A DNA stretch of 64,000 nt, taken from contig OZ257136.1 in NCBI GenBank assembly GCA_965278995.1, positions 2,874,497 through 2,938,496 of the forward strand, given 5' to 3'. Shown piece after piece: positions 7,288-59,876 of the stretch (the stretch's first letter is position 1; every line of letters starts with the position of its first letter). The notes under the pieces were generated by a model. The model worked only from the letters and a program-made list of their open reading frames with translations. It made no database searches and had not been told where the DNA came from. A program made the position numbers and the translations under genes. This DNA is from Gammaproteobacteria bacterium. Lineage in GTDB: Bacteria; Pseudomonadota; Gammaproteobacteria; Ga0077536.

Positions 7288-7501
7288 GGTGCATCCCCTC
7301 AACGCTGCTTTTGTGGTCGATAGCGTACGTCCTGAGGCCGCAACTGCGTAGTTGGAAATGCGGGCATAGCGCGCATTATCGCGCGCCGAAACCGAGGCAG
7401 GACACGGCTGCCAACCCGCCGCTGGCGCCGTTCCCGACAAGGCTCGCGCCCCCGGCCGGCATCGCGCACAATGCCGGTCATTCAGGGCGAGGGGAAAGCA
7501 C

Positions 7502-12630: not shown

Positions 12631-14946
12631 GTGGAACTCACCGGCCATCAACCGCCCGCTGTCGACGACCCGGTCTTGCGCGATCCGGTCTGCGGCATGA
12701 GCGTGACGGATCAGTCGCCGCATCACCACGTGCATGAGACACGCGCGTTCAATTTCTGCAGTGCCGGCTGCAAAACGCGCTTTATCGCCGATCCATTGCG
12801 CTATCTCGCACCCGAAACGGTAGCGCGGGACGCTGCCGTGCAGCCGCCCGGCACGCGCTATACCTGCCCGATGCATCCGGAAATAATCACTGAGAAACCG
12901 GATGACTGCCCGCTCTGCGGCATGCGCCTCGAGCCGCTGCTGCCGGGTCTGGACGATGCCGCTGATCCCGAACTAGCCGACGTCGAGCGCCGCTTCCTGT
13001 GGAGTCTGCCGTTGACCTTGACCGTGGTCGCGCTGGCCATGTTCGGCCATCGATTCACAGGTATTGCGCCCGCACTGCAGTCCTGGCTCGAAGGACTGCT
13101 GGCTGCGCCGGTGGTGCTGTGGGCAGGTCAGCCGATCTTTACTCGCGCCTGGCGTTCGCTGCTCCAACGCAGCCCCAATATGTGGACCTTGATTGGTACC
13201 GGCACCAGCGCCGCATTCGTCTACAGCGTAGCTGCCACGTTGCGACCGGAGTGGTTCCCGGATATTTACGCCACGATGGGACGTATCGGTGTCTACTACG
13301 AGGCCGCCGCTGCCATCGTTTCGTTGACTCTGCTCGGGCAGATCCTTGAACTGCGCGCACGCGCGCGGACCGGCAGCGCATTGCGCAGCCTGTTAGGCCT
13401 CGCGCCTGAAACAGCAACACGTGTCACCGCCAGTGGAGATGAACTCGAAGTGCCGCTGGCTGAGGTGCAGCGCGGCGATCGATTGCGCGTCCGCCCCGGC
13501 GGCCGTGTGCCGGTCGATGGCCTGGTCATCGAAGGTCGCAGCGCGGTCGATGAATCGATGCTGACAGGCGAACCGCTGCCGGTCGTCAAATGCACCGGCG
13601 ATCGCGTCATTGGCGCGACCATGAACGTGGACGGCACGCTGATCATCGAAGCGACGAGTATCGGCATGGAAACGCTGCTCGCCCGCATCGTTGCCCAGGT
13701 CGCCGAGGCCCAGCGCTCGCGCGCGCCGTTGCAGCGCCTCGCCGATCAGGTCGCGCGTTACTTCGTGTTCGGCGTCGGCACTGTCGCTGTTGCCAGCTTG
13801 CTGGCGTGGGGTCTGTTTGGCCCGGAACCGGCCTGGACTCATGGCTATATCAATGCGATTGCGGTGCTGATCGTAGCCTGCCCCTGCGCTCTCGGTCTGG
13901 CAACGCCGATGTCAGTGATGGTCGCCACCGGGCGTGCGGCCAGCCATGGAATTCTGTTTCGCGATGCAGCGGCGCTCGAGCGTTTGCGCGACGTCGATAC
14001 GCTGGTCATCGACAAAACGGGGACCTTGACTGCGGGTCGCCCAAGCGTCGTACGAGTCGTGGCAATGGTGGGTACTTCAGAGAACGATGTGCTGCGACTC
14101 GCCGCCAGTCTCGAGCAGGGCAGCGAACACCCGCTAGCCGGTGCCATTGTCAACGCGGCGCGTGCGCGCGAACTCATCCTCAGTCGTCCGCTCACCTTCA
14201 CCGTCGAAGCTGGCGCAGGCGTCGAAGGTCGGGTTGGCAACCGGCGTTTGATGCTTGGCAGTCCGACCTACCTGGCTACCGCAGGCGTGGCTATCGATGT
14301 GGCCTCCCTCGATGCGACGACGCGCGTCGAGGGCAGCGAGAGCATCGTCTATCTGGCTGCCGACGGCGTGCTGCTTGGACGTATTGCGCTGGCCGACACT
14401 ATCAAATCCAGCACACCCGCTGCGCTGGCCTCCCTGAAGGCGGCGGGTCTGCGTGTGATTATGGCCAGTGGTGACGCCGAGGTCAGCGCGCAGGCTGTCG
14501 GCAGACAACTCGGTCTCGCCGAGATTCACGGCGGTATGTTGCCGCAACACAAGCGCACGCTCGTACAGCGACTGCAGAACGAAGGGCGCATCGTCGCTGT
14601 CGTCGGCGACGGCATCAACGATGCGCCCGCGCTCGCTCAAGCCGATGTCGGCATCGCCATGGGCACCGGCACCGATGTCGCCATGCACAGTGCTGCCATC
14701 ACCCTCGTTAAAGGCGACCTGCGCGGCATTGCGACCGCACGAGCACTGTCAGTTGCCGCCGTCACCAATATGCGCCAGAACCTCGCTTTCGCGCTGATCT
14801 ACAATGCTATCGGCATCCCTCTCGCCGCCGGCGTGTTGTATCCGTTCACCGGCTGGCTGCTGTCACCGATGTTTGCAGCGGCCGCGATGAGCCTCAGTTC
14901 GGCGTCAGTGATCACGAACGCACTGCGTTTGCGGACTGGACATTGA
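12631..14946 (+). CDS. copA: Copper-translocating P1B-type ATPase with an N-terminal TRASH/YHS-like domain plus a CxxC metal-binding domain
   Basis: Motifs present: [15 protein letters not shown]...CPLCGM, the TGEP actuator motif, the CPC transmembrane motif ([12 protein letters not shown]), DKTGTLT and GDGINDAP. The start codon is GTG. Confidence 0.9.
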
Positions 14947-16317: not shown

Positions 16318-17514
16318 TCAAGTGCCGAAAGCACGGGCGAAACGTTCGGCGATATCGTGCAGGCGTGCCAGGGGTTCATTGGCGAATACCAGCCGCAGAT
16401 AATTGGCGGTCTCATCCAGGCCCCAGTTTTCCATCGAAGTCGCGGCGACACTCTCGGCCAGCAGGCGACGCGAAGCTTCAGCGCCGGTCAGTCCAAGACG
16501 GCGAAAATCGATCAGCACCGACCAGCCGCCCTGCGCCGGGATGATGTCGAATTGCATGCGCAGCGCGGCGACCAGGAAGTCGTGCCGTTCCTGCCAGGCC
16601 GCCGTACAATCAGCGATGCCGTCGTCCTGCGCCTCAATTGCGGCGGCAACCGCCTGCTGCGCAATACCCACCGGGCACACCACATTCGAGATGCTGACCC
16701 GGCCGATAACTTCTGCGGCCGACAGCGGGCACACCACCCAGCCAACGCGCCAACCGATCATGCGGTATTCCTTCGACGCGGCACCGACCGTGACCGTCCG
16801 TTCTGTCATGCCTGGAAAGTGCAGTGGATGATGTTGCGGCGTGCCTTGGAATAGCAAACGCTCCATCGCAGTGTCGACGATCATCCAGGCATTGGCTTCC
16901 GTGCAGGCCGCACAGACCGCTCGCCATTCGTCTTTAGTGAACACTGCGCCGCTCGGCATCGACGGACTCATGAGCAGAAACGCTCGCGTTTTTGCCGTGA
17001 CAGCCGAGCGCAGCGTGTCGAGATCCATGCGCCAGCCCTGTGGCCCTGGTGTCATGCGGATATAACGCGGTACACCACCAGCAAGCTTGACGCGATTGAT
17101 CAGCCCGACGTACGTCGGGCTCGTCAGCACCACTTCGTCACCCGGCTCGATCAAAGCGAGCAGGACATTCAATATCCCGTTCAAGCCACCCGCAGAAATA
17201 AAGCACTGCTTGCGCCAGTCATAGTGACCAGAGGCAAGTCCCCCATTGCGTTCGACAAGACCGACGGCGGCACAGCGCAAACGATCGTGGCCGAAGAACG
17301 GCAGATAACTGTTGGCGCTGTCTTCTCGGACCTGCGCTTCGGTCATCGCGAGCGCGACCGGCGGCGGCAGTAAGTCCGTATCGAGATTCTCCAGGCGCAG
17401 CACACGCGGATCGCGCAGCGTATCTGCAGCATCGCCCATACGTTCGACACCGATGGCCGTCATCGCGGCGGTGCGTTGTCCGATGGTTGGAACCGATGGG
17501 GATATCATAATCAC
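16318..17514 (-). CDS. PLP-dependent aminotransferase, class I/II
   Basis: The Schiff-base lysine context SKEYRMIGWRVGW is present, with a typical fold-I length. Confidence 0.8.
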   Translation of the reverse strand: MIMISPSVPTIGQRTAAMTAIGVERMGDAADTLRDPRVLRLENLDTDLLPPPVALAMTEAQVREDSANSYLPFFGHDRLRCAAVGLVERNGGLASGHYDWRKQCFISAGGLNGILNVLLALIEPGDEVVLTSPTYVGLINRVKLAGGVPRYIRMTPGPQGWRMDLDTLRSAVTAKTRAFLLMSPSMPSGAVFTKDEWRAVCAACTEANAWMIVDTAMERLLFQGTPQHHPLHFPGMTERTVTVGAASKEYRMIGWRVGWVVCPLSAAEVIGRVSISNVVCPVGIAQQAVAAAIEAQDDGIADCTAAWQERHDFLVAALRMQFDIIPAQGGWSVLIDFRRLGLTGAEASRRLLAESVAATSMENWGLDETANYLRLVFANEPLARLHDIAERFARAFGT

Positions 17515-17683
17515 CTCCGCGCCGTTATCTTCCCGAGCGGGCCAGTAGGGTGCAAGTCCAGAGCGCTACGGCGTGGAAGATCTGCACCTACATCCGATAG
17601 AACAACGTACTATTCAGAGCAACCTTGCGCATAATGCCTTCAGCTGGTGGCCGTCGAGGAGAATTTTCGATCCTGTTAGCAGG

Positions 17684-17764
17684 GTGGTGAAATAAGTAGG
17701 GAGCGAAGGCAGGACAAGGCGCGCTGGTGCAACGCAGTCATGTCGAGCGCAATAGTTTTTCACC
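17684..17764. repeat. MITE/REP-like palindromic element, copy B (GGTGAAATAAGTAG ... AATAGTTTTTCACC)
   Basis: About 85% identical to the reverse complement of 45821-45899. It has ~12-bp terminal inverted repeats and an internal GCGCTNG/CGAGCGC dyad. Spurious ORFs across copies B and C share the peptide LVKNYCARHD...ARLVLPSL. Confidence 0.6.
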
Positions 17765-17787
17765 AGCCCGTTGGAGCGTAACGACCC

Positions 17788-18075
17788 ATGAACGCTGTCA
17801 TAGTCTTCGTCGCCGCAACCGTCGTCGTCGCACTCTTGGCTTGGATGGCATTCTTGGCTGTACTCGCAGTTATGCGCGATGTGAGTCTTTCCAAGATCCA
17901 GAAAGCTGCCCAAGCCTCGCTGATTATTTTGGTTCCATTTTTCGGGGCATTAATCATTTTGCGGCTCACACATGTCATCTCTCCTGAAGCCATACCACGA
18001 GCATTGGTCCCGTGGCCATTTTCCAGAATAGTGTTCGGGTCGGAGGCCCGCGAAACAAGGACAGACAGAATTTAA
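17788..18075 (+). CDS. Small hypothetical membrane protein (two transmembrane helices) in a low-GC islet
   Basis: The ORF has hydrophobic segments and atypical composition. The call is weak. Confidence 0.3.
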   Translation: MNAVIVFVAATVVVALLAWMAFLAVLAVMRDVSLSKIQKAAQASLIILVPFFGALIILRLTHVISPEAIPRALVPWPFSRIVFGSEARETRTDRI

Positions 18076-18266
18076 TGGGAGAAATAGCTCTAAACGAATA
18101 CGTACAAGGACGCCACGAGCATCTTGACGGTGAGTAAGGTGTAAAGAAAGACCGGGCCAGCCGGGGATGTCCAACTCCGTAACCCAACTGTCGCTAGAAA
18201 ACGGCTAATACTCCTCTGTCCACTCGTAACGCGCCATACATTCGACGCCTACCGTGCTTCCGCCGC

Positions 18267-18584
18267 TCACGCCGCCTGAACTGTATTGATCTCAGCGATT
18301 ATGGCAGCGCATCGTCTCTCCGCGTGCCACAAGTCATAGCGCTGCTGAAGCTGCAGCCAATGATCCGGGCCGTTACCAAAAAGCTTGCCCAACCGCAATG
18401 CCATTTCCGGCGTTACCGGCTGACGCTCTGCAAGTACTGAATGTAGCGAGTGACGTGAGACACCGAGCGCGCGCGCAGCTGCAGACTCCGATAGGCTAAC
18501 GGATGGTAGCGCTTCGTCGCGCAAGACCTCTCCGGGGTGCGTAGGAGCCATCGATGGAACGCTTACCTTGAATGCCTTCACCAT
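18267..18584 (-). CDS. higA: HigA-family antitoxin (XRE-type helix-turn-helix)
   Basis: MAPTHPGEVLRDE...LGVSRHSLHSVLAERQPVTPEMALRLGKLFGNGPDHWLQLQQRYDLW matches the HigA signature. The start may be the Met at 18551. Confidence 0.6.
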   Translation of the reverse strand: MVKAFKVSVPSMAPTHPGEVLRDEALPSVSLSESAAARALGVSRHSLHSVLAERQPVTPEMALRLGKLFGNGPDHWLQLQQRYDLWHAERRCAAIIAEINTVQAA

Positions 18585-18781
18585 CGTTGAACCCTCGAAT
18601 CGGGAAACTGTGGATCGCGAACAATTGTAGATAGCGGCATCAGTCGTGTAAACCAAAAATCGACAGTTATCGACGACTGATCCGACCCTACCAAACTAAT
18701 CAACACGTTCTGTCGACATGTTCGAAGTTTACTTCGCATGCTGAACTGCACAAGGACTGGTCGAGAAAACGAAACGGCCAA
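18585..18781 (-). pseudogene. Putative frameshifted remnant of a higB (RelE/ParE-fold) toxin upstream of higA
   Basis: Two minus-strand frames give HigB-like C-terminal fragments: SITVDFWFTRL, then after a frameshift RFLVYTTDAAIYNC. Compare the WSIRVNDQWRLIFRW...DAYDVDYVDYH-type C-terminus. There is no intact toxin ORF. Confidence 0.3.
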
Positions 18782-18818
18782 TCTGACGTGTACCGATGCA
18801 GATGGCTACAGTCTGTGA

Positions 18819-21407
18819 TCAGTCATTGTCAGGCGCCTGCAGATTGATTTGCCTTAGTGCTTGCTCCGCTTCTGGGCGCGTCGGCTGAATGTGCACCAAT
18901 TCGGTCAACAGTGCGCGGCCACTGTGAGCATCAATGTGAGCAAGGCTCATTGCCATGCGTACAAGTGGGTCGTAAGCAGGGCGGAAATCCGGACTTATCC
19001 GTAACACGGCCAGCAGGGGTTCCCGTACTTGCGCCAGCATGTCCCGTACGTCCGATGACGGTTGCACATTGAGACCAGATTCGATGAATCGATATCGTGC
19101 CTCCCGATACGCAGCGAGGCGGCGATGCCAAGTGTCGCTGGATGAGGCAGTTACCATTTCGTGCGGCCCGATGGAGAATTCCTGCAGCAGCTCGAATAGC
19201 CGCTCGCGCGGGAGCGCATCGGGCACGTACGTAATGCGTGGCGCACGATACGCTACGATCGGACGGTCGTCGGTATTGGCAGGTGCATTGCCGGCGAAGT
19301 GTCTCAGCGCTTTAGGCCCAGCGACGAAACTGCCGAGCAGGGCAAATTCATCGTCTATTCCGAAGTCGGCCATTTCCTGCTGGCGCGCGCCAGCCAGGCG
19401 GGCACGCACTTGACCGACATCGAAGCGACCATCGTCACCGCGTGCAATGAGCCCCAATACCGGCGTCTCGAGGCTGTTACTCGCGAGCAGCGCCCCGCCG
19501 TACGGATACACCGCGATAAATGATTGGACGATGCTGCGCAGCGTATTCAGGTCGAGTTGATGCAGTGGCAACCATTGGCAGAAGAGCCCTTCCTGTGCCA
19601 GCCGCCCGCGAACGGCCGCAAAATGTTCCACGGTGTACAGAGAACCAGAACCGCTGCGCGCTGGATGGAAGTTGTCGGATACGATCACATCATAGAGATC
19701 CGTACTCGTTCGGGTAAATCGCCGGGCGTCTGCCGCAATCAAATGGAGCCGTGGATTAGGGACACCAGCAGAAAATGCGCGGGTGAAATAGCGGGATGCT
19801 TCGATCACTTCCGGTAACAGTTCGACGGCGTCTACTTGCAAGCTCAAGTCTTCTGCCGCCGCCGACGCTGTCATCCCTGTACCAAGGCCCAGAAACAGCG
19901 CCCGTCTGGGTCCGGGGTGCAATAGCAGCGGCAGCAACGCTTGCCGCCCATCGACTCGACGAGTCGCGCTGCTGCCTTCTTGCTGCCGATTATTGATACG
20001 CAAGCGCGCGACACCATCGCGATCTTCGACCACGCTTACCGCAGCCAGGATCCCTTCTTGATAGCTGACGACGTGACCGCCGCTGGGAATTTCGACGAAA
20101 GCCAAAGCCGGCGCCAAAATAGCCAGTGACAGCACCGCTACTGTGGGCATCCATACCATAGGTGTGTACCACGCGCGCGCTGAGGTCACTGCTAAATAAC
20201 TGGCGCTAATCAGCAATAGCGCCAACTTAGGTCCGAAGGCGGGAAACACCAGCAGACCGAAAAGAAGCGGAGCAGCAGTCGCTCCCAGCATGTTCACGCC
20301 GAGTGCACGTCCGAATGTGATGCCAGCCATGCTTGCCTGGGCGCTCAGGTGACTGAACACGGCGCCCATCACCAATGTAGGTAGCCCGAAGGCGAGCAGC
20401 GCCAATATCGCTTCAGCAGCGATGTCCGAGGTCATGCTGGCGCCGAACCCCTGAATCAGCAGCGATTTCACCTGTTCAGCCGCCCATAGACTTGTCGTTC
20501 CTACGAGGCAAGCTGCTGCCAACGCGCACAGCAGTCGATCCCCAAGTAAAGTTGCATCGACGTCTCGCACGTGCCATCGATGATACGCAGTAGCACCGAG
20601 CGCACTACCCACCAGATACACGGCGAGCAACATGGCGAACGTATAAACAGTGTCCTCTGTCACTTGACTCAGCACCCGCACTACGAGCACTTCGTAACCG
20701 ATCCCAAGCAGACCTGTAAGTGTCAGTTGAACAAGGACGCCCCGTCGGACCGTCGGGGACCGTGTCCCCTGGTTCAGTCCTGCGGGCGAACTCTCGCGGA
20801 AGAAAATCAGGCATGCCACAGCGCAAAATACGTTCAGACTTATACAAACGCCTGCGGTACGGGCAAGACCATGATCGGGTATCAACCAGAACGCAGTAGC
20901 GAGTACACCCATCACCGCACCGAATGTGTTGCTGGCATATAGCGCAGCAATAGACCGCGTTTCGATACGCCAATTCGTTGTTAAGCGCTCCATCGCCGGC
21001 AGTGTTGCCCCCATTGCAGCCGTGGCGGGCAGAAGCATGACGAAGGTCCCGCAAAATGCCACTACCCACTGCACCGCCGGCGTCGGTTGTGCGCCAGTGA
21101 TGCCCACCAACCAACCACTGAAGGACGCCATCCCAAACACCAGCACTAAACTCCAGAAGGCGATGATCAGTTCGCATCCCGCGTACCACCACACGGGCCG
21201 ACTGCTGCTTTCGATGCGCTGACCGAGCGCCGAGGCCCCGATAGCCAGGCCACCAAAAAACGCGGTAATCACCGCCAACACGGCCGCGGATTCGTGTCCC
21301 AGCCACAGGGCACACTGCTGCGTCCAGACAATCTGATAGCCAAGCCCGGCAAAGCCGGAGGCAGCCATTAAAAGCAGTGCCGCTCGCGGGCTCAACACAG
21401 GAACCAT
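18819..21407 (-). CDS. Fused polytopic membrane (MFS-like) and spermidine/spermine-synthase-fold protein
   Basis: The N-terminal ~480 aa has many transmembrane helices. The C-terminus has aminopropyltransferase-like motifs (ALFLGLGTGMTA, DVIVSDNFHP). The start is set at MVPVLSPRAALLLMAASG. Confidence 0.7.
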   Translation of the reverse strand: MVPVLSPRAALLLMAASGFAGLGYQIVWTQQCALWLGHESAAVLAVITAFFGGLAIGASALGQRIESSSRPVWWYAGCELIIAFWSLVLVFGMASFSGWLVGITGAQPTPAVQWVVAFCGTFVMLLPATAAMGATLPAMERLTTNWRIETRSIAALYASNTFGAVMGVLATAFWLIPDHGLARTAGVCISLNVFCAVACLIFFRESSPAGLNQGTRSPTVRRGVLVQLTLTGLLGIGYEVLVVRVLSQVTEDTVYTFAMLLAVYLVGSALGATAYHRWHVRDVDATLLGDRLLCALAAACLVGTTSLWAAEQVKSLLIQGFGASMTSDIAAEAILALLAFGLPTLVMGAVFSHLSAQASMAGITFGRALGVNMLGATAAPLLFGLLVFPAFGPKLALLLISASYLAVTSARAWYTPMVWMPTVAVLSLAILAPALAFVEIPSGGHVVSYQEGILAAVSVVEDRDGVARLRINNRQQEGSSATRRVDGRQALLPLLLHPGPRRALFLGLGTGMTASAAAEDLSLQVDAVELLPEVIEASRYFTRAFSAGVPNPRLHLIAADARRFTRTSTDLYDVIVSDNFHPARSGSGSLYTVEHFAAVRGRLAQEGLFCQWLPLHQLDLNTLRSIVQSFIAVYPYGGALLASNSLETPVLGLIARGDDGRFDVGQVRARLAGARQQEMADFGIDDEFALLGSFVAGPKALRHFAGNAPANTDDRPIVAYRAPRITYVPDALPRERLFELLQEFSIGPHEMVTASSSDTWHRRLAAYREARYRFIESGLNVQPSSDVRDMLAQVREPLLAVLRISPDFRPAYDPLVRMAMSLAHIDAHSGRALLTELVHIQPTRPEAEQALRQINLQAPDND

Positions 21408-21438
21408 GATGGAAGTCCGGTAGATAACCGGCCTGGCC

Positions 21439-22086
21439 TCAACCACTGAACTTGATCGTGTAACCCCACGAGTCCAGCTGGGCCGGAATGGCATTGAACG
21501 ACAGCGTGATGCGCTGCTTGCCTTGATTGGGCGGGACCGCGTGCATGAGAAAACTCGGAAACAGTGCAAGGTCGCCGGGGAAAGGCGCTGGACTGATCCA
21601 CTTATCGGCATTGAACTCGTTCGGCGTCATACGTCCGTGGTCATTTTTAAACAGGAAATCCGTGCCGCCTGGAGATTTCATGAAAACGGTCTGCGATCCG
21701 GGATGCGTTGCCGTCAAATACACCACGCCCGAGATGAAACTATTGGCGTGGTTGTGCATGGCCTGCCGACCGCCCGTCTCCAGTACATTGACCCACATCT
21801 CTTTCAGCGACCAACCCATGCGCTCGCCGAAGAGTAAAGCTCCGAAGTCGATAATCTTCGGGGTGATCAGCGCCGCAGCTTTGACGAACAGCGGATTATC
21901 GCTCGGGCGCAGTATCTCGGTGTGGGAAAGATTAGAGGATGAACTGTTGCCACGTGTTGCCAATGTGGAAAAGTGTTCAATCAACCCTTTCACCAGTGAA
22001 TGATCCAACACTGAGGGTGCCCGCATGAAGGGGATGGGGAAGAGCGGGATTACTTCATCCATCTTTTTTTTCATTGGACTTGCCAT
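21439..22086 (-). CDS. Fe(II)/2-oxoglutarate oxygenase-like protein (TIGR02466-like family)
   Basis: The motifs HNHANSFISGVVYL and SFLMHAVPPN give an HxD/H...H arrangement. The assignment is by family resemblance only. Confidence 0.55.
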   Translation of the reverse strand: MASPMKKKMDEVIPLFPIPFMRAPSVLDHSLVKGLIEHFSTLATRGNSSSSNLSHTEILRPSDNPLFVKAAALITPKIIDFGALLFGERMGWSLKEMWVNVLETGGRQAMHNHANSFISGVVYLTATHPGSQTVFMKSPGGTDFLFKNDHGRMTPNEFNADKWISPAPFPGDLALFPSFLMHAVPPNQGKQRITLSFNAIPAQLDSWGYTIKFSG

Positions 22087-22165
22087 TGTCTCTGAATATG
22101 CACCAGTGGCGGGAATAATCGGCAAAACGTTCGTCGATAGTGCAACCCGCAACAGCGTTTGCACG

Positions 22166-23113
22166 CTAGCTTAAAATTGCCGCAACTCGCAGCCACGACC
22201 AGTACGCCGCCAGAGAGCCGATACCGTATAACAACGGAAGGCGGCCGCGCTCGACCAGCGGCCACCGCCGAAGTGCGCGCCAGATTAGCCACGCTGTTGC
22301 TACTGCCAGCAGCTGCCCGATCTCGACACCGATGTTGAAGGTCAGCAATGCGGTTGGCAGATAGTTCTGCGGCAGGCCGACTTCCTTCAGTGCGCCAGCA
22401 AAGCCCAGACCATGCATCAGTCCGAAGAGGAACGCCACTGCGGCGGGCCAGCGTTTCGATAAAGACTGGCGCTGCTGCAAGGCCTCTGCGACGACCAGCA
22501 CTATCGAGAGCGCGATGGTGGCTTCCACCGGGGGCGACCGCAATGTCAGCCAGCCCAGAGCGGCACTTGCGAGCGTAAGGCTATGCGCCGCGGTGAACGC
22601 TGTGATGGTCCACACCAGTTGACGCCGGAAACCGACAAGTACCAACAGGCTGATGACAAACAGCAGGTGGTCGATTCCACCTAAGATATGTTCCACACCT
22701 AATACTGTGTACGCCGAAGCAATCTCACCTCTGCCGCGCCGATCGTCGGCAGAACCGTACAACCGTACCGTCGGCTGGCCCGCCGTCAACGTATAGACGT
22801 GTGATTTTCCGTCCAGCCAGAAGATTTTCACGAGTGCGGCAGAATAACGCTTGCCCACTCCTTTGATTGCCAGCATACCCTGCAGTCCGCCGTCGCCACA
22901 GCGCAGCACATTGGGCTCAGCGCGGCAGCCCTCGGGCCACATCGGCTTCAGATCCGCAATGGCTGCGCCTTTTTCGCTCGCCGTCCATTGCCACACGAAG
23001 GTGCCGTGCGACGTTTCGCGAAGCTGCATCTCGGCCATGCTCATTTCGTGCGCCGCCGCTACGCCGCTCAGCATGAATACCGCCAACAACGCGAAGCGGA
23101 GCAAACCGGTCAC
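22166..23113 (-). CDS. HupE/UreJ-family membrane protein with a ~140-aa N-terminal periplasmic domain
   Basis: There is a signal peptide. The motifs GIDHLLFVISLLVLVGF and LMHGLGFAGAL are typical of HupE/UreJ. Confidence 0.65.
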   Translation of the reverse strand: MTGLLRFALLAVFMLSGVAAAHEMSMAEMQLRETSHGTFVWQWTASEKGAAIADLKPMWPEGCRAEPNVLRCGDGGLQGMLAIKGVGKRYSAALVKIFWLDGKSHVYTLTAGQPTVRLYGSADDRRGRGEIASAYTVLGVEHILGGIDHLLFVISLLVLVGFRRQLVWTITAFTAAHSLTLASAALGWLTLRSPPVEATIALSIVLVVAEALQQRQSLSKRWPAAVAFLFGLMHGLGFAGALKEVGLPQNYLPTALLTFNIGVEIGQLLAVATAWLIWRALRRWPLVERGRLPLLYGIGSLAAYWSWLRVAAILS

Positions 23114-23982
23114 TTCGTGGCGGTCTCGGTTTTCACGTTGTACTTCTTAGCTAACGCGCGCACGGCAGCAGTGCGTTGTTCGGCCATAGTGGCGTCGGTC
23201 CAGTCCTGCAATACCACACCGCGCAGACGCTCGAATACTGCTGGCTTGGATGGAGTCATCAAATCAAGTCGGATCGCGCGCCACCCCTCACGCGTCGAAT
23301 ACGCTCGCCATTCGCCCGTCGGCGATTCTCCGAGCATCTTCGCGAATTCAAGGCCATAGCTCTCAGTGAGGTTCGCCTGCGGTCGCCCCTTGAAGACCCG
23401 CAACCCGGCCTCCGCCTCAGCCGGCGCTCCGGCATTCAGACTTTTGACAAAGGCGCGCACCGTCACTTCAGTGGCGTCGCCGGCGAGCACTGCCTCCTCG
23501 AAATCGTAGCGCGCTGGCTCGTCGTATTGAGTACGGCGTATTTCAAACCATTTGCGTAGGAGTTTGTCGTCGAATGGCGGCAGTTGGACATTCGCATCGA
23601 TGACACTGAGGGCCTTGAAGATTATCCGCTGCCGGATGGCATCATCGCCCTTGTCCACCTGCAGCGCCAACCCTTCACGATAAAGCACCTCATTGTCGAG
23701 CCAGACCTGCCGCAGCGCGTCCAATTCCGCCTTGGTGGGATCCCGGCCGCGCGAAGCCTTGAACACCTGCCTGGATTCCTTGTCGACGTCGGCGCCAATC
23801 ATGATCGTCTGCGGATCATCCACGCTTTCGAGCAAAAAGTGATCGAACGCGAACAGCAAGCCGCCCAGCACGATGAAATGGACGAGCGGCTCGCGCAGCC
23901 AGTTAGGCCAACGCATTTTGCGACGTACCACAGCGGTGTCGTTGAAGAGGGCAGTCGAGAGCGGAGTTGGCATGTTTGTCAT
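23110..23982 (-). CDS. Membrane-anchored hypothetical protein (single N-terminal transmembrane helix; SurA-N/PpiC-like region possible)
   Basis: It is translationally coupled to its neighbours: its stop overlaps the next start, and its start overlaps the upstream stop. The function is not established from sequence. Confidence 0.45.
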   Translation of the reverse strand: MTNMPTPLSTALFNDTAVVRRKMRWPNWLREPLVHFIVLGGLLFAFDHFLLESVDDPQTIMIGADVDKESRQVFKASRGRDPTKAELDALRQVWLDNEVLYREGLALQVDKGDDAIRQRIIFKALSVIDANVQLPPFDDKLLRKWFEIRRTQYDEPARYDFEEAVLAGDATEVTVRAFVKSLNAGAPAEAEAGLRVFKGRPQANLTESYGLEFAKMLGESPTGEWRAYSTREGWRAIRLDLMTPSKPAVFERLRGVVLQDWTDATMAEQRTAAVRALAKKYNVKTETATK

Positions 23983-24708
23983 TCACATCGTAAATGCGAG
24001 CTGGCAGGAAGTCCCGAAGCTGAAAATACCCGTGCGTCTATTCGGAGACGGCAGCAGGCGATCCCGGTCAGCGATCACCATCGCCAAACTGCGCATTCTC
24101 TCCTTGTGCAGCAATCTCAAACCAAAAACGATCAACATCGCCAGCAACGGTGCGGACGGTGCCAGCGGAATCTGACGCGTGCTTGCTCCACTTGCATCAG
24201 CAGTCACCACAAAATCCAGACCGTAGGAGGTCGGGCCGCCGGTCTCCTGCACCCACACGGAATACATACCGCTCGGATGCCCGGCGCCGAAGCCAATGGC
24301 AGGAAGAATGTCGGTACCGACATGCTCATAGCTGTAGTGAGCGAAACCCAGCAGATTCTCGACGCCTGCACCCGAGGGTGACACCGTAATCTGCGGGCCC
24401 GCTTGCAGGGCGATGAACGATGCGCCTCCCGATACGGTCGTGCTGCCCGCAAGAATGAGCGACGTCAGGCTCGATCCAGCAGGCACCGCGAACGTGAAAT
24501 AGTCGCGATCGACTCCCTGCCCGTTATTTCCCGTGGCACCGAGTACGCTATTCACGCCGGGCGTGACGACCAGCGCAGTGGGCGCCAGACCGTTATTGGA
24601 AAAATCACCGTCGCTGTCTTCGTTCCAGACGGTAACGCCGTGTGCCGCAAACGCTCCGCCCACGGCAAGCATCACTGCCAGAAGTTTCGTGCCAGGTCCC
24701 GGTTTCAT
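23983..24708 (-). CDS. Secreted PPC-like-domain protein with an internal PEP-CTERM-like segment (IPLAPSAPLLAMLIVFGLRLLHKER) followed by a ~40-aa extension
   Basis: There is a signal peptide MKPGPGTKLLAVMLAVGGAFAAHG. DRDYFTFAVPAGSSLTSLIL resembles a pre-peptidase C-terminal domain. The sorting-like segment is not at the extreme C-terminus. Confidence 0.5.
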   Translation of the reverse strand: MKPGPGTKLLAVMLAVGGAFAAHGVTVWNEDSDGDFSNNGLAPTALVVTPGVNSVLGATGNNGQGVDRDYFTFAVPAGSSLTSLILAGSTTVSGGASFIALQAGPQITVSPSGAGVENLLGFAHYSYEHVGTDILPAIGFGAGHPSGMYSVWVQETGGPTSYGLDFVVTADASGASTRQIPLAPSAPLLAMLIVFGLRLLHKERMRSLAMVIADRDRLLPSPNRRTGIFSFGTSCQLAFTM

Positions 24709-24780
24709 TGCAGATTGCTCCCAAGAGAAAGGCGCCGCGCGGATTCCGCGCGCCGCCTTTAGTAAGACGCGTGGGAGGGC

Positions 24781-27018
24781 TTACAACGCGCCGAGTATTA
24801 CCGTCCCACCCGTTACCTGGATGTAGATTGGGTTGCTGTAGAACCACAGATCAGCCCAGGCCGCCAGGTCGTTGGCCACATACTTCTGGCCACTGACGGT
24901 TGGCAAGTGTGCGGGGCAACCATCGATCGCTACGCCCGCGTACACCGTGCCGTTGGCGGGGACGGTGGTGCCGGTCACGGTACACGGGATCTTGAGGTTG
25001 GCCGTGTTGCTGGCGTTGGTATAGAGGTCCGGCAACGGGTTGCCGCTGGCATCGGTTTCGAACGGCACGGCAGCAGGCAGGTTAGTGCCGCGCAAGCGAA
25101 CGTACTGGGACGCCGAAACCGCAGGGATGCGGTAAGTCATCTTGAGGTACTGGGTGCCACCCGAACTAACTGCCACCCATGGCGTGGCGCCGTTACCGTT
25201 GAACGTCTTGATAACGGCGGCAGTCGTGTTCTTGGCCGCAGCCGGTACCGTCGCGATATTTGGATTGGCAAGCCAGGTGTTGGGCCAGGCGCCCGAATAA
25301 TCGGCCGTTCCCGGTGTCTTGTAGCCGGTTACCAGGCCCCGAATGACGTCGATGTGATCGAGTACAGGCGCGTTCACGGGCTGATTGACGCCGATTTGAG
25401 CCAACGACGGATTAGCGAAAACGTACGGTGAGTAGTTGGTCCCTGCCGGATCGCGTACGACGACCGACACCACGATTTCTGAACCTGCACGGACGGGGAG
25501 TTTCTCGCCCATCGTCGCGCAGCCGGCTTTATTGTCGATGCCCGTATTACCCGTCGCAGCGGCGATTGCCAGCGCTTCCACTGCCGCATTGGTACGGAAG
25601 GCTGCGCCCGGGTAGGACGCACAAGCAACGAATGCCAGGCGATCGATTAATTGTCCGTTGGCAGTGAAGCTGTTACCTGTGCGCAAGCCATCGACAATTG
25701 TTTGCGGTCTCAGCTTGTCGGCACCGTTGCGCACCATCGCGTAATCACGTTGATACTCACCGGGGTAGAAATCTTGCGTCGATCTGCGATCGTCGGGACT
25801 GAACACCCCGCGGTTGTGCCAGTCGGAACTTGCGAAGAACCAAAAGTTACGCCCTTCTCCGAGCAAGGCATCCCATACGCCACCGACGTAGGCGCCATAG
25901 ACACCGGTACCGCCATAGGTCGTGCCGCCAACGGAATCGACCAGGACGCCGCCTATGTTGTTCCGATTGGGCGAGTACTCGCCTCGATTATCTGAAGCGT
26001 GGTGACCCGGCTGCGTCTCCATGCCGAAAGCGACTTGCGGCGCGGCATTGTTGAAGTTGCGCAGATGCTCAATATTGAAGCCGTTGTTGCCGTCGGGATT
26101 GAACGGCCCGGCGCGTTCGAGGTGGGCAGGGACGTAGTAGCTTCCAGTCGGATGCTTCTCAACCATCCACTTCAATGCTTCGACTGTCTTGTTGTGTCCG
26201 CGCGTGCCGTTACCGGCGCCGCTGGCGGGTACAAGCTTCTTGGCGCTGTCGTTCCAGCTTGGATCGGCCACATTCAGGCTGCCAGTAACAGAGCAATCCC
26301 AGTTGTTGCCTTCACTCGTGCCGGTGGTGTTGCCACGGCTCGTGTCCGTGTCATTGCGGTCGAAGCAGTACTCCCACTGGGCCAATGCCGTAGCATTACC
26401 AAGACCGGTATAGCGAGAGCCGCTCGCGTTCGGTTCGGTCGGCAGAACAGCAGTATCCAGGGCCATCGGAATCTGGCCTGTAATGACAGCCATCGACGTG
26501 TGTTCATGCCCTGGCACAACCGTTTCGACACCGATGAACATCGGCTCGTTCTTCAGTGCGGCCAGATACTCGACGACGGGATACTGGAATTCCTGCACCG
26601 ACTGCCAGCGCCACATATTACGATTCACGCCGCTGCCAGAAACATTGCCCTTGACCGTAACGCCGCTGTTGACCCAGGTCGTTGTCGGCCCTGACCCGGC
26701 GATTAACGGATACGCCGGTGTGTCGAGCGTGGCGTCCTCGGTCAGTGTGCAGTTGCGATTGCCGCTGCCGCCGTGGCCCGCTTGCACGAACCAATCCAGG
26801 CCCCACGGGGTGTCCAACTGGTCGGTCGATTTTTTTATCAGCTTCTGCATCGAAATCGAGCCGTCCGAGCAGGTCGTATGGTTATGAAAGTCGCCCGCTA
26901 CGTATTTGCCTGGCGTCTTACCTGCTGCCTTCGTAACGGTAGGCGCGGTAGCCAGAGCGGTGGTGCCGATAGCCGCGACCGCCGCGAGGGCGATGTGGCG
27001 CTTGAATCCAGTTTTCAT
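24781..27018 (-). CDS. Large secreted PHP-domain metal-dependent phosphoesterase-like protein (745 aa)
   Basis: There is a signal peptide. PHP motifs present: GDFHNHTTCSDGS, PGHEHTS, QPGHHASD and SSDWHNRG. Confidence 0.65.
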   Translation of the reverse strand: MKTGFKRHIALAAVAAIGTTALATAPTVTKAAGKTPGKYVAGDFHNHTTCSDGSISMQKLIKKSTDQLDTPWGLDWFVQAGHGGSGNRNCTLTEDATLDTPAYPLIAGSGPTTTWVNSGVTVKGNVSGSGVNRNMWRWQSVQEFQYPVVEYLAALKNEPMFIGVETVVPGHEHTSMAVITGQIPMALDTAVLPTEPNASGSRYTGLGNATALAQWEYCFDRNDTDTSRGNTTGTSEGNNWDCSVTGSLNVADPSWNDSAKKLVPASGAGNGTRGHNKTVEALKWMVEKHPTGSYYVPAHLERAGPFNPDGNNGFNIEHLRNFNNAAPQVAFGMETQPGHHASDNRGEYSPNRNNIGGVLVDSVGGTTYGGTGVYGAYVGGVWDALLGEGRNFWFFASSDWHNRGVFSPDDRRSTQDFYPGEYQRDYAMVRNGADKLRPQTIVDGLRTGNSFTANGQLIDRLAFVACASYPGAAFRTNAAVEALAIAAATGNTGIDNKAGCATMGEKLPVRAGSEIVVSVVVRDPAGTNYSPYVFANPSLAQIGVNQPVNAPVLDHIDVIRGLVTGYKTPGTADYSGAWPNTWLANPNIATVPAAAKNTTAAVIKTFNGNGATPWVAVSSGGTQYLKMTYRIPAVSASQYVRLRGTNLPAAVPFETDASGNPLPDLYTNASNTANLKIPCTVTGTTVPANGTVYAGVAIDGCPAHLPTVSGQKYVANDLAAWADLWFYSNPIYIQVTGGTVILGAL

Positions 27019-27077
27019 CGAGCCTGCTCCTGTGTGGGTGTTGAGATTGAGAGCGACGAAGAGCCTATCGATTCACG

Positions 27078-27104
27078 GTGACATCGATATGACATATCGG
27101 TGAC
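27078..27104. promoter_or_regulatory. Three direct TGACA repeats spaced 10-12 bp apart (TGACAtcgatATGACAtatcggTGACA), upstream of divergent secreted-protein genes. This is a candidate regulator binding site.
   Basis: Read directly in the sequence; the repeats are phased by about one helical turn. Confidence 0.3.
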
Positions 27105-27260
27105 ACGGCGAGACTGTTTGGCTGGCGACTATCCGATGCAATGGAAGGCCGATGTGTTTCATCGGCTTGTAATACACACGAGAGAATATCCACTCGCACA
27201 CTCGGGCGTCGCGCGTGCGGAATACAAATTATCAATCAGCACTCTGACAGGATACTCACT

Positions 27261-27893
27261 ATGAAACTCAGCCGACTCTTTGCAGTGGCCACTTTGAGCG
27301 CTATGGCTGCCAGCCCAACTTTCGCCGCACAGTTCACTGTTGATTTCGAGAAGAACTGGGACTATCTCGACGGCGACATCAACGGCTACTACAATGGCGG
27401 TACCGCGGCTGACGGAACAACCGGTGCCAATCTCGGCGTTTCATTCGTGGGCGTATCAGGCTTATCCAACGATCTCGACTTCACTTACTACACCGGGGCT
27501 CCATCGCCGCAGGGCACAGCATATGCCCACACGTTCGCGCCTGAAGACCTTGCATTCATGAACGTCGCAGCCGGTGTCGACAACGCGCTCTCGTTCTATT
27601 ATTCGAGCCCGGGCGATGCGCTCGGCGCAGTGAAAGCCTACTCCGGCTTGAATGGCACAGGCACACTGTTGGGCACGCTAGATCTGGCGGCAAATACCAC
27701 TGGTGGCTACGACGTATGGACACTCGTGACGTTCGCGTTCACCGGCACCGCCCTGTCGTTTGATCTCACTGGCAGTGCCAATCTGGTCGGCCTGGACGAT
27801 ATCAGCGCGGTCCCGGTGCCGCCGGCACTGGTCCTGCTGGCTTCTGCCCTGCTCGGCATTCCGGCAGTACGCCAACGGATCAACCGGACGTAG
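27261..27893 (+). CDS. Secreted PEP-CTERM-like (VPVP variant) protein
   Basis: There is a signal peptide MKLSRLFAVATLSAMAASPTFA. The C-terminus is AVPVPPALVLLASALLGIPAVRQRINRT. Confidence 0.75.
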   Translation: MKLSRLFAVATLSAMAASPTFAAQFTVDFEKNWDYLDGDINGYYNGGTAADGTTGANLGVSFVGVSGLSNDLDFTYYTGAPSPQGTAYAHTFAPEDLAFMNVAAGVDNALSFYYSSPGDALGAVKAYSGLNGTGTLLGTLDLAANTTGGYDVWTLVTFAFTGTALSFDLTGSANLVGLDDISAVPVPPALVLLASALLGIPAVRQRINRT

Positions 27894-28016
27894 CCCACCT
27901 ACTCTCAGGCCATGAGAACACCGGCGGAACTGCGGACTGCGTCACCTGCACGTGACGTAGTCCGCAAGTAGCTGCAATTCGGATATTGAATCGGGTGGTA
28001 AATGACGGCGGATGTT

Positions 28017-28982
28017 CTAAACAAACTGCAGCATGACTTCAGCAAGGTGATGAAGCGCGTCGCCCATGACAACAATCTGAATCAGCAAAGCGACCGCAAG
28101 CACGCTCATTGCATGGCTGGTTTTCCAGCTTCGCCATTCCGGTCGTTGCAGGGCGCAGGTTCGCGCGCCAGCATTCAGTGCGTCGAATGTCGCCGAGCCA
28201 ACATTACCTTGAGCCAGCCGCCAACGCGTCATCGCCTCAATCGTAGACACAACCATCCCCACGTCCCCAGTTGCGCGCGAGACCGCATAGTCACACGACT
28301 GTTCGGCGGCAAGGTGCAGTTCGGCGAGCAAGCGCCCACGTCCTGCTGCTGGCCACGTGAGGCTCGCGGTGCTTGCCAGCAGGTTACGTAAATTGTCACC
28401 GCGATAGCAATGCGCGCGTTCATGTAACAGGATGACCTCAACCTGAGCGGGAGTGGCGTGTTCCAGTAACCCGCGCGACAGCAGGATGGTCGGCTTCAAC
28501 ACGCCGATACAGCAAGCGAGCAGGGTATCACTGTCGAGTACCCTGAACGATTTTCCCGTTACAGGTCGCGCCATCCACGTCAGCATGCTGGCGCTACGCG
28601 CACTGCGCCAGATCGCAGCGCTGGTGATTGCAATCGCGGCAAGCAGTAGTGTTGCAACTATCCATGGGATTGCATGCGCCACCGATTCGGAGACTTCCAA
28701 TATCGGCACGTGTCCGCCGCAGGCCTTGCCATGACAATGACTATCGACGATCAGCGTACTCAAGCCCGGCGCAAATACGATGAGCGTAATAACGACAGCA
28801 AGCGTCATTGGATACAGCGCGTAGCAGAACAGATAGAACGACCGTTGAGCAGGGACCAAAGGTCGCATTTTCCTCACGATCCAAGGCACCGCCAGCGCCG
28901 CCAAGCCGCTCAACAGGTACCACAAAGCGAAGAACGCCAGCACGGGTAGTACTACGGGTTCAGCGATCAGCGAGGCGTGCAT
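28017..28982 (-). CDS. BlaR1/MecR1-family M56 peptidase signal transducer (anti-repressor)
   Basis: It has multiple transmembrane helices and the zinc motif HERAHCYRGD (HExxH). Confidence 0.8.
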   Translation of the reverse strand: MHASLIAEPVVLPVLAFFALWYLLSGLAALAVPWIVRKMRPLVPAQRSFYLFCYALYPMTLAVVITLIVFAPGLSTLIVDSHCHGKACGGHVPILEVSESVAHAIPWIVATLLLAAIAITSAAIWRSARSASMLTWMARPVTGKSFRVLDSDTLLACCIGVLKPTILLSRGLLEHATPAQVEVILLHERAHCYRGDNLRNLLASTASLTWPAAGRGRLLAELHLAAEQSCDYAVSRATGDVGMVVSTIEAMTRWRLAQGNVGSATFDALNAGARTCALQRPEWRSWKTSHAMSVLAVALLIQIVVMGDALHHLAEVMLQFV

Positions 28983-28983
28983 A

Positions 28984-29388
28984 TCATTTGACCTCGAGAT
29001 GCGCGCGCAGTGTGTCCAGCATGGCCCGCGCTTTATCGGGTTCGAGTTCGTCGACGAGATTCAGGAACCCGCTGAGCAGCGGCTCGATTCGCCCAGTCGC
29101 AAGGTCCTGCGAAAGATCGTTCATCAAGAGGGTAATTAACGCGGTCCGGTCGAGTTTCGTTACGTACTCAAATGCGCGCCTCTGCTTTTGTCGAGTGAGC
29201 AAATTCTTGCGCGTCAACCGTTCTAACGTCGATTGCACGGTGCTGAGCGTTATATCGCGCGGGTGCAGTGCGTCGAGTACCTCACGCGCAGTCAGTCGTT
29301 CATGGCGCCACGCCAGCTCCATTACCTCGATCTCGAGTTGTCCAAGGCGCGGCGCCCGACTCCGCCGTCGCATCCCTATGAAGTTCAT
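28984..29388 (-). CDS. BlaI/MecI/CopY-family transcriptional repressor
   Basis: It has a winged-helix N-terminus (LGQLEIEVMELAWRHERLTAREVLDAL) and is coupled to the downstream BlaR1-like gene. Confidence 0.8.
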   Translation of the reverse strand: MNFIGMRRRSRAPRLGQLEIEVMELAWRHERLTAREVLDALHPRDITLSTVQSTLERLTRKNLLTRQKQRRAFEYVTKLDRTALITLLMNDLSQDLATGRIEPLLSGFLNLVDELEPDKARAMLDTLRAHLEVK

Positions 29389-29526
29389 GAATTACCGTCT
29401 CGTTACAGTGGCGTTCAAAGTTCGAGGATTAATCGGTTTTCAGGAACGATGCTAAAACAGCACTGTTACAGCAATTACCGCAAGGACCCTGCATGCCTAT
29501 CGCCAACATCATTCGACCGTGTCGCC

Positions 29527-56215: not shown

Positions 56216-56216
<1 letters not shown>
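55335..56216 (-). CDS. tadB: Type II secretion system F-domain pilus platform protein (TadB-like)
   Basis: It has a GspF-like domain and is coupled to the cpaF stop. Confidence 0.7.
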
Positions 56217-57961
<1,745 letters not shown>

Positions 57962-57973
57962 ACTGAATCCGCC

Positions 57974-59512: not shown

Positions 59513-59547
59513 GTACTGATCCCCTCGCGTGCCGTGTTGTTTGTTGT

Positions 59548-59874: not shown

Positions 59875-59876
59875 CT

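Follow-up and report, generated by a model that had tools for sequence, protein, structure and literature searches.

What system is encoded by six consecutive minus-strand open reading frames (ORFs) in positions 18819–27018 of a 64,000-nt stretch of the gammaproteobacterial contig OZ257136.1 (below, the window)? We refer to them as g0 to g5, from the most upstream gene to the last one. The initial annotation dealt with five of them, g1–g5, and considered these as one tightly coupled operon, not corresponding to a known pathway, for a polyamine-like or aminopropylated product that is exported and coupled to a secreted or anchored substrate protein. The data presented below favor another explanation, to which we assign a probability of about 0.5: the locus would represent an uncharacterised envelope system that is widely conserved, induced upon phosphate starvation, and comprised of two co-regulated modules. 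The presence of five closely spaced minus-strand genes is confirmed, with gaps of 0 bp between g1 and g2, –4 bp between g2 and g3 (the start codon region of g3 overlaps the g2 stop by 4 bp), 79 bp between g3 and g4, and 31 bp between g4 and g5. The sixth gene, g0, was missed and sits 72 bp upstream of g1.

A profile search with g5 identified relatives in 507 of the species genomes scanned; 80 loci were fetched and supplemented with loci from exact-protein look-ups, so that the overall sample comprised 85 loci from Beta-, Gamma-, and Alphaproteobacteria and Myxococcota. Synteny was scored by tblastn of the six window proteins against these loci. In 75 of 77 loci, g4 immediately precedes g5 on the same strand, and we refer to this pair as module A. 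Module B consists of g0, g2, and g3, in an order constant across loci. The two modules always adjoin each other, and we observe A upstream of B in 25 loci, B upstream of A, as in the window, in 18, divergent modules in 17, and convergent ones in three. Out of 41 loci having at least 9 kb on either side of g5, 37 contain all of g0, g2, g3, and g4; of the four exceptions, two lack g0 alone and two have a truncated g2 or g3. The copies are 50–76% identical among Betaproteobacteria (Aquabacterium, Rhizobacter, Rubrivivax, Variovorax, Rhodoferax, Uliginosibacterium), Gammaproteobacteria (Methylococcaceae, Steroidobacteraceae, Competibacter, Spongiibacteraceae), and Myxococcota (Polyangiaceae).

Re-querying with one distant g0 relative and inspection of gene contexts led to sets in the Alphaproteobacteria Rhodovastum (locus L086, 29–6338) and Bradyrhizobium (L087, 1895–7718). 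They include a g0-like protein (35–40% identical), a Rotamase_2 protein, a HupE_UreJ_2 protein, and a g5-like protein, as well as PF13759 in Bradyrhizobium; two additional short HupE_UreJ (PF04955) genes are carried by these loci. Since the set recurs in such distant bacteria, the five-gene association is both old and specific. Type II secretion genes GspD/E/F/H adjoin the cluster in both genera, which hints at a dedicated export route for the g0-like protein in Alphaproteobacteria, and a TonB-dependent receptor adjoins the Bradyrhizobium cluster. In the locus of the g0 relative from Desulfobacca the partner genes are absent.

Thus, the synteny expected for the five-gene operon holds for g2, g3, g4, and g5 and fails for g1, and instead of one five-gene unit we see two modules, to which g0 belongs and g1 does not. 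One could suppose that these genes are same-strand neighbors brought together by chance and forming no functional unit, given that a terminator-like hairpin separates g0 from g1 and a gap of 79 bp separates g3 from g4. This is effectively refuted by the synteny data, leaving a negligible probability: the five core genes stay together in the 37 well-flanked loci, in four classes, despite the rearrangement of modules, and the same promoter motif is found on separate transcription units (see below). As stated initially, the combination is not a known pathway, none being found described in the literature searched, which also contained no paper on the cluster or on the fused MFS/spermidine synthase family. 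Judging by the searchable literature, the five-gene combination, the Pfam-less g0 family, the conserved attenuator, and the predicted extracytoplasmic SpeE fold are all undescribed. On the other hand, the superfamily of every component has a name, and PhoB control of secreted hydrolases is a familiar theme.

The evidence on regulation comes from the region upstream of g0. The PHO box is formed by 11-nt direct repeats with a CTGTCAT-type core (PMC4415409). Three exact TGTCAY hexamers with 11-bp spacing, that is, three units of 11-nt direct repeats, are seen in the sequence TGTCACcgataTGTCATatcgaTGTCAC upstream of g0 (27105 down to 27078), and nowhere else in the 64-kb window does TGTCAY-N5-TGTCAY match exactly. 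We further searched the loci for TGTCA-N6-TGTCA with at most two mismatches no further than 200 nt upstream of a gene. The motif precedes g0 in 36 of 67 loci, compared to 5.3 ± 2.4 (maximum 13) in dinucleotide shuffles and to 4% in random segments of the same loci, and all 36 regions are proteobacterial (36 out of 57 proteobacterial loci). It is also present upstream of g4 in 21 of 76 loci (4.6 ± 1.9 in shuffles), many of the best matches coming from loci in which g4 is the first gene of a divergent transcription unit of its own, and upstream of 15 of 31 separately transcribed copies of u250, a gene of a secreted protein that is divergent from g0 in the window.

In the alignment of the 36 sites, the second repeat is followed at constant distance by a TAnnnT element (T 91%, A 88%, T 77%), which was not included in the search pattern. 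In the window, TAGGCT is located exactly 10 nt past the last repeat and followed by the g0 ATG at 27018. In PhoB-dependent promoters of E. coli, the Pho box replaces the –35 element and is separated by approximately 10 nt from the –10 hexamer. The same layout, with the box in the –35 place and about 10 nt to the –10-like hexamer, is observed at g0. Boxes of Fur, Zur (two consensus forms), NikR, and CueR/MerR type occur upstream of g0 and g4 with background counts only. Going by these motifs, we consider it likely that the Pho regulon of Proteobacteria includes both modules and also the PEP-CTERM protein that frequently accompanies them.

Another conserved element directly follows the g0 stop codon. 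In the window it reads AAAGGCGGCGCGCGG-AAU-CCGCGCGGCGCCUUU, then CUCUU (24760 down to 24728), and an 81-nt stretch containing it folds at –36.3 kcal/mol (z = –3.2). In a strict test requiring a perfect GC-rich stem of at least 8 bp and a following T-tail, hairpins were found after g0 in 37 of 71 loci, compared to one of 70 after g2, none of 71 after g3, and none of 73 after g5; in further loci, including the window itself, the stems after g0 are imperfect. The same stem core, GGCGCCGCGCG, is shared by loci of different phyla, compensatory changes being seen in variants such as GACACCGCG/CGCGGTGTC. A near-identical stem (GGCGCCGCGCG...CGCGCGGCGCC, then a T-run) is seen after g0 in Beta- and Gammaproteobacteria and in Myxococcota. 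Retention of the stem sequence across phyla is unusual for a terminator and could result from recent horizontal spread of the cluster or from an extra role, such as that of a protein-binding palindrome or an mRNA-stabilising element. In eight of 81 loci, a terminator-like hairpin is found in the short g4–g5 gap.

In many loci, the gap between g0 and g2 is merely 20–100 nt and leaves no room for a second promoter, therefore transcripts of g2 and g3 must arise by read-through from the g0 promoter. Such an arrangement, as far as can be told from sequence, is what one expects if the first product is abundant and the accessory genes are expressed at a low level. Within 18819–24708, the shared strand and short gaps agree with a single operon, and consensus scans show no excess of promoter- or terminator-like sites over shuffles; an Rfam scan of 17000–32000 identified no RNA family. 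Since transcription most likely starts at the g0 promoter, upstream of these five genes, read-through of the hairpin, which lies just ahead of g1 and was overlooked initially, is needed to reach g1–g5.

The g0 protein has a signal peptide, a PHP-type motif GDFHNHTTCSDGS (DxHxHTxxSDG), and eight invariant cysteines, and is found in 64 loci at 58–74% identity. The metal ligands of PHP proteins come in the order DxHxH, H, E, H, H, DxH, and the invariant residues of g0 (D43, H45, H47, D52, H82, E165, H171, H173, H275, H299, D399, and H401) agree with this order. Hence, the N-terminal DxHxHTxxSDG and the later His, Glu, and DxH motifs are common to g0, the PHP phosphoesterases (YcdX, TrpH/RNase AM, histidinol phosphatase, CpsB), and CehA/McbA; unlike these enzymes, g0 is 745 aa long, secreted, with four predicted disulfides and no significant Pfam or PDB sequence match. 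Such features fit a disulfide-bonded extracytoplasmic metallohydrolase. The g0 profile retrieved only 907 relatives from 1.84 billion cluster representatives, and the distant ones are also secreted and have no Pfam domain except tails of the type IX secretion system (T9SS). The number of g0 copies varies: two Polyangiaceae loci (L029, L060) have g4–g5–g2–g3 with no g0 in the locus, L027 contains two full tandem copies, and further g0-family ORFs are seen in a few other loci such as L048, L051, and L059, while the number of the other four genes is fixed. Being duplicated in some loci and absent from two, g0 fits the role of a payload rather than of machinery.

The other two proteins of module B are membrane-bound. 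For g2, initially described as a single-pass PpiC/SurA-like protein, the single transmembrane (TM) helix (residues 33–51) is retained, while the PpiC part turns out to be weaker, with Rotamase_2 at 25.1 bits versus the gathering threshold of 27; its orthologues are recorded with PF13145, some of them weakly. The protein is present in 70 loci at 56–70% identity, has an N-terminal TM helix and a large periplasmic part, and yields no sequence match in PDB. The description of g3 as a HupE/UreJ-like protein with an extra periplasmic domain is well supported by PF13795 (HupE_UreJ_2, 157.6 bits versus 24.5). Its periplasmic N-domain is approximately 120 aa long; the mature N-terminus HEMxMAEM, following an Ala, is invariant, as are the motifs G.EHIL.G.DHL.F and HGLGFA and two cysteines. 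With the HupE/UreJ nickel/cobalt permeases g3 shares HxxxGxDH in TM1 and His as the first mature residue, and it differs from them by belonging to the PF13795 subfamily, by the added domain, the invariant HEMxMAEM, and the Cys pair, and by the constant translational coupling to the parvulin-like gene.

In module A, the assignment of g4 to Fe(II)/2-oxoglutarate oxygenases is upheld by 2OG-FeII_Oxy_5 (PF13759, 81.4 bits versus 27) and TIGR02466 (62.7 versus 62.5). The canonical HxD/E...H triad is replaced by H-N-H...H, a three-His variant invariant in 80 orthologues, and RIT stands where RxS is usual; no signal peptide is present. The protein resembles structures 3BVC and 2RG4, which carry the same three-His motif. 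These are uncharacterised structural genomics entries of the TIGR02466/PF13759 family, which has no known substrate, and the HxH...H and RI(S/T) motifs are common to them and g4, which stands apart from other proteins of this family by its fixed position beside the MFS–SpeE fusion. The true start of g4, judged from orthologues, is probably at 22062–22086.

The fusion itself, g5, consists of a 12-TM fold of the major facilitator superfamily (MFS), a 13th TM helix (421–439), a SpeE-fold domain, and a C-terminal helical TPR-like domain; the 862-aa form, starting at Met69 of the long ORF, exactly matches one protein in the public collection. That it joins an MFS transporter to an aminopropyltransferase fold, as initially proposed, is corroborated by Spermine_synth (38.7 bits) and NF037959 (60.2 versus a cut-off of 40), and the AlphaFold2 (AF2) model (predicted local distance difference test score, pLDDT, 84.8; predicted template modeling score, pTM, 0.87) contains the SpeE fold with its N-terminal beta domain and Rossmann domain. 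At the same time, g5 remains far below the equivalog cut-offs (TIGR00417, 44.9 versus 249.55; PRK00811, 54.3 versus 260; PRK03612, 66.8 versus 472). In the alignment to T. maritima SpeE, GGGDG is replaced by GLGTG, so that the acidic residue selecting decarboxylated S-adenosylmethionine (dcSAM) is gone, with G507, G509, G511, and T513 invariant in 44 homologues. DSTDP is replaced by SDNFHP, where D578 is kept and the catalytic Asp (D173 of T. maritima SpeE) is changed to H581, conserved in at least 90% of the 44 close homologues. Two alphaproteobacterial copies with 40% identity show the same two substitutions. Since the Gly-rich loop is retained, along with the ribose and adenine contacts E529 and D560, some adenosine-type ligand may still be bound by g5.

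MFS transporters have 12 helices and both termini in the cytoplasm. Over the 44 g5 homologues, the sum of K+R is 15.4 in the N-terminus and even loops versus 1.5 in odd loops; the loop before TM13 has 1.8 K/R and 0.05 D/E, and the 25 residues past TM13 have 0.7 K/R and 4.7 D/E. The MFS fold, the 13th helix, and this charge distribution together predict that the SpeE-like and helical domains are in the periplasm, a location that we regard as fairly probable, and dcSAM would not be expected to be at hand there. With the binding loop kept and the catalytic aspartates lost, we read this domain as a ligand-binding one or a non-canonical transferase coupled to a transporter.

Compared to SpeE structures (PDB 1UIR, 1INL/1JQ3, 2O06), to which it is 17–20% identical, the SpeE-like domain of g5 not only has GLGTG for GGGDG and His for the catalytic Asp, but is also fused behind a 12-TM MFS domain and an extra helix, predicted to be periplasmic, and extended by a helical TPR-like tail. 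The order of a membrane domain and a SpeE-like domain is shared with the membrane-bound SpeE-like proteins of NF037959 and PRK03612. The NF037959 model spans residues 312–703 of the scanned 930-aa ORF, whereas in g5 the duplicated MFS domain is complete, with 12 TM helices, and a helical domain is added at the C-terminus; the family name “fused MFS/spermidine synthase” is descriptive. Among structural neighbors of the MFS domain are SPNS2, Spns1, and a putative triacylglyceride transporter.

These data bear directly on the model in which one operon makes a polyamine-like or aminopropylated compound that g5 synthesises, g4 modifies, and the MFS domain exports, with attachment to g1. It draws on the genuine SpeE and MFS folds of g5, on its retained Gly-rich loop, E529, and D560, on g4 and g5 being always adjacent, and on PEP-CTERM proteins being often nearby. 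Nevertheless, both signature aspartates are lost family-wide, including the 40%-identical alphaproteobacterial copies, the scores of g5 are far under every speE equivalog cut-off, the topology predicts a periplasmic SpeE domain, and g1 is missing from most loci. Polyamine or aminopropyl chemistry is thus not sustained; g5 is probably not a spermidine synthase and probably makes no polyamines, and we regard the model as a whole as very unlikely.

As for g1, its homologues are found in just six of 82 loci. A protein that is not conserved cannot be the obligatory anchored substrate, and this role, assigned to g1 initially, has to be abandoned. The PPC domain ascribed to the protein is also poorly supported, with no match in the window and a sub-threshold one in the best orthologue (E 0.13). 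The sorting-tag segment matches none of PF07589, TIGR02595, and TIGR03370, and the best orthologue reaches E 0.017 for PEP-CTERM, again below threshold. What we see in g1 is a degenerate PEP-CTERM-like segment IPLAPSAPLLAMLIVFGLRLLHKERMRS with a PLAP-helix-HKERMR pattern, followed by about 35–41 more residues and hence not C-terminal; the orthologue in L033 has a canonical C-terminal end with a score under the cut-off. The slot between g0 and g2, occupied by g1 in the window, is empty in approximately two thirds of loci, and otherwise filled either by a PEP-CTERM protein, of which two unrelated types occur, or by a PCuAC-like protein (PF04314). The latter is exemplified by a slot gene of about 147 aa in L002 (7120–7566), recorded as PF04314 (PCuAC/LpqE-like copper chaperone). 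Slot genes of about 147 aa are seen in the Aquabacterium and Caldimonas-type loci L002, L009, L012, L018, L021, L062, and L071.

The u250 gene adjoins g0 in about 35 of 83 loci. Its product features FTVDFEKNWDY...VPVPPALVLL...RQR, and the Methylomonas orthologue passes TIGR03370. The u250 family fills the g0–g2 slot in Methylococcaceae, and elsewhere is divergent from the cluster or beside it. Pfam searches of g0, g1, and u250 at E up to 5–10 gave nothing usable. A TonB-dependent receptor family, represented in the window by 29233–31653 on the plus strand, is found near the cluster in about 26 loci; besides these two families, no conserved cluster neighbors were observed among the loci.

Taken together, these observations suggest the following mechanism. 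Transcription of module B would start from a PhoB-type promoter with a Pho box instead of the –35 element. The abundant payload of the module would be g0, a Sec-exported, disulfide-rich, PHP-like metallohydrolase, and the conserved hairpin past the g0 stop would attenuate transcription, so that the helpers g2 and g3 are made in smaller amounts. The membrane-anchored parvulin-like g2 would serve as a periplasmic chaperone, most likely helping to fold g0, and g3, a putative HupE-type metal transporter with a His/Met-rich periplasmic domain, would most likely metallate it. The resulting enzyme most likely frees phosphate from an organophosphate. PEP-CTERM surface proteins and the TonB-dependent receptor would be frequently recruited as optional additions. 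Module A would combine the cytoplasmic three-His oxygenase-like g4 with the MFS transporter g5 and its periplasmic SpeE-fold/TPR-like domain. A tentative extension, which we consider doubtful, is that the MFS part delivers a cytoplasmic compound shaped by g4 to its own periplasmic SpeE-fold domain for a new transfer or capture step that does not involve dcSAM and on which either the secreted PHP-like enzyme or the cell surface depends.

Several observations weigh against this phosphate-starvation reading. There is no Pfam family for g0: Pfam PHP matches just six of 37 members, with the best E of 0.25, and the score against the CehA/McbA metallohydrolase family NF038032 is 38.2 bits at a cut-off of 80. 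Moreover, neither sequence nor profile search revealed a PDB relative of g0, and its AF2 model, built with 37 close homologues, has a mean pLDDT of 51.6, too poor for a fold search. At the threshold used, the Pho-box-like motif is present in none of ten Myxococcota loci and lacking in about one third of proteobacterial ones. The retained Gly-loop, E529, and D560 of g5 and its one invariant Cys would equally suit a cytoplasmic S-adenosylmethionine-binding domain. The His/Met-rich N-terminus of g3 and the PCuAC-like gene give hints of copper, which is not a usual PHP metal. Finally, the constant coupling of the cytoplasmic oxygenase-like g4 to g5 is left unaccounted for.

The copper hints lead to a reading in which the locus handles copper or nickel/cobalt: g3 would import or export the metal, g0 would be a metal-dependent oxidoreductase or hydrolase with no relation to phosphate, and the TGTCA repeats would be bound by another OmpR-family regulator. 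The membership of g3 in the HupE/UreJ family with its invariant N-terminal His and MxM motifs agrees with this model, and so do the PCuAC-like gene (PF04314) between g0 and g2 in the Aquabacterium and Caldimonas loci, the two extra HupE_UreJ genes of the alphaproteobacterial loci, the frequent TonB-dependent receptors, and a heavy-metal P-type ATPase 4 kb away in the window. The PCuAC-like slot gene and the His/Met-rich g3 N-terminus make it a possibility that copper is the metal handled. However, Fur, Zur, NikR, and CueR-type sites were not found upstream of g0 and g4, the P-type ATPase is not conserved beside the cluster, and a direct 11-bp TGTCAY repeat replacing the –35 element is the layout of PhoB, while the CusR/CopR box is an inverted repeat. 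Metal handling as the main function is therefore unlikely. The Pho-box evidence applies equally to remodelling of the envelope or lipids upon phosphate starvation, with g5 flipping a lipid or its precursor by means of the MFS domain and modifying it at the periplasmic side, g4 tailoring the precursor in the cytoplasm, and g0 removing phosphate head groups. The lipid transporters SPNS2 and Spns1 and the putative triacylglyceride transporter among the neighbors of the MFS domain, as well as an architecture (MFS plus a periplasmic transferase-fold domain) suited to action on the outer leaflet, point in the same direction, and MprF and LtaA-type flippases provide an analogy; still, we hold this variant to be improbable. 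A model of a nicotianamine/mugineic-acid-like metallophore was set aside, as the SpeE-like domain is predicted to be periplasmic, and no conserved importer or dehydrogenase is present.

If the cluster is indeed phosphate-regulated, its closest counterparts are the secreted phosphatase systems of the Pho regulon (PhoA, PhoX, PhoD), together with the Hxc type II secretion system of Pseudomonas aeruginosa, which is Pho-regulated and comes with LapA. The 11-nt TGTCAY direct repeats replacing the –35 element, a secreted metallohydrolase payload (for g0, by prediction), TonB-dependent receptors, and, in Alphaproteobacteria, type II secretion genes alongside are features in common. Unlike PhoA, PhoX, and PhoD, the Pfam-less, PHP-like g0 is outside the known alkaline phosphatase families, and the four fixed partners (parvulin-like, HupE-like, PF13759, and MFS–SpeE fusion) occur in no described Pho system.

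The coordinates of the genes and regulatory elements are collected in Table 1.

Table 1. Genes and candidate regulatory elements of the cluster and its vicinity (window coordinates).
Feature	Position	Strand	Description
g0	24781–27018	–	745 aa, secreted; module B core
g1	23983–24708	–	241 aa, secreted; accessory passenger, outside the core
g2	23110–23982	–	290 aa; PpiC/parvulin-like, single-pass membrane-anchored, periplasmic; module B
g3	22166–23113	–	315 aa; HupE/UreJ_2 membrane protein; module B
g4	21439–22086 (long ORF to 22164)	–	215 aa counted from the first ATG; module A
g5	18819–21407 (long ORF to 21611)	–	862 aa from Met69 of the long ORF; module A
Pho-box-like operator	27078–27105	–	three TGTCAY hexamers, TGTCACcgataTGTCATatcgaTGTCAC, 60–87 nt 5' of the g0 ATG
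–10-like hexamer	27062–27067	–	TAGGCT, 10 nt past the last Pho-box repeat
Terminator-like hairpin	24728–24760	–	GC-rich, between g0 and g1
u250	27261–27893	+	PEP-CTERM/VPLPA-CTERM-type secreted protein, divergent from g0
TonB-dependent receptor	29233–31653	+	BlaR1/BlaI-like pair intervenes between the receptor and the cluster

The TonB-dependent receptor of the window is adjoined by a BlaR1/M56-peptidase-like gene and a gene of a BlaI/CopY-like repressor (28017–29388, minus strand), and the TTACAG...CTGTTACAG motifs upstream of the receptor resemble a BlaI-type operator. Downstream of g5, the window contains a heavy-metal P-type ATPase with YHS and HMBD domains (12631–14946, plus strand), a cytochrome P450 (15036–16271, plus strand), a class I/II aminotransferase (16318–17514, minus strand), and a small helix-turn-helix (HTH) protein (18267–18656, minus strand), none of which is conserved beside the cluster in other genomes. 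Further away, a 944-aa protein with three DUF7453 repeats is encoded at 4729–7563 (minus strand), and Tad/Flp-pilus-like genes, including an FHA-domain T2SSE ATPase and an RcpC/CpaB-like protein with DUF3659 repeats, at 56216–61826 (minus strand).

Whatever the product, the label “spermidine synthase” on the g5 family is probably wrong, which is a warning for annotation. Should the doubtful pathway through g5 without dcSAM prove true, the aminopropyltransferase fold would have its first functional member outside the cytoplasm, and the Pho regulon a machinery of a new class, common to four classes of bacteria or more. If the Pho-box interpretation is correct, the cluster would be a widespread, unstudied part of the bacterial response to phosphate starvation. 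The g0 proteins would then be candidates for a new, Pfam-less family of secreted enzymes releasing phosphate, and a testable role would be offered for the many genes annotated as “fused MFS/spermidine synthase”, “HupE/UreJ family protein”, and “TIGR02466 family protein”. The carriers of g5 relatives are Beta- and Gammaproteobacteria from freshwater, soil, groundwater, and wastewater, methanotrophs, Competibacter, Bradyrhizobium-type Alphaproteobacteria, and Polyangia. Enzymes of this kind are relevant for phosphorus cycling and for the interpretation of metagenomes, including those of enhanced-phosphorus-removal sludge, the home of Competibacter.

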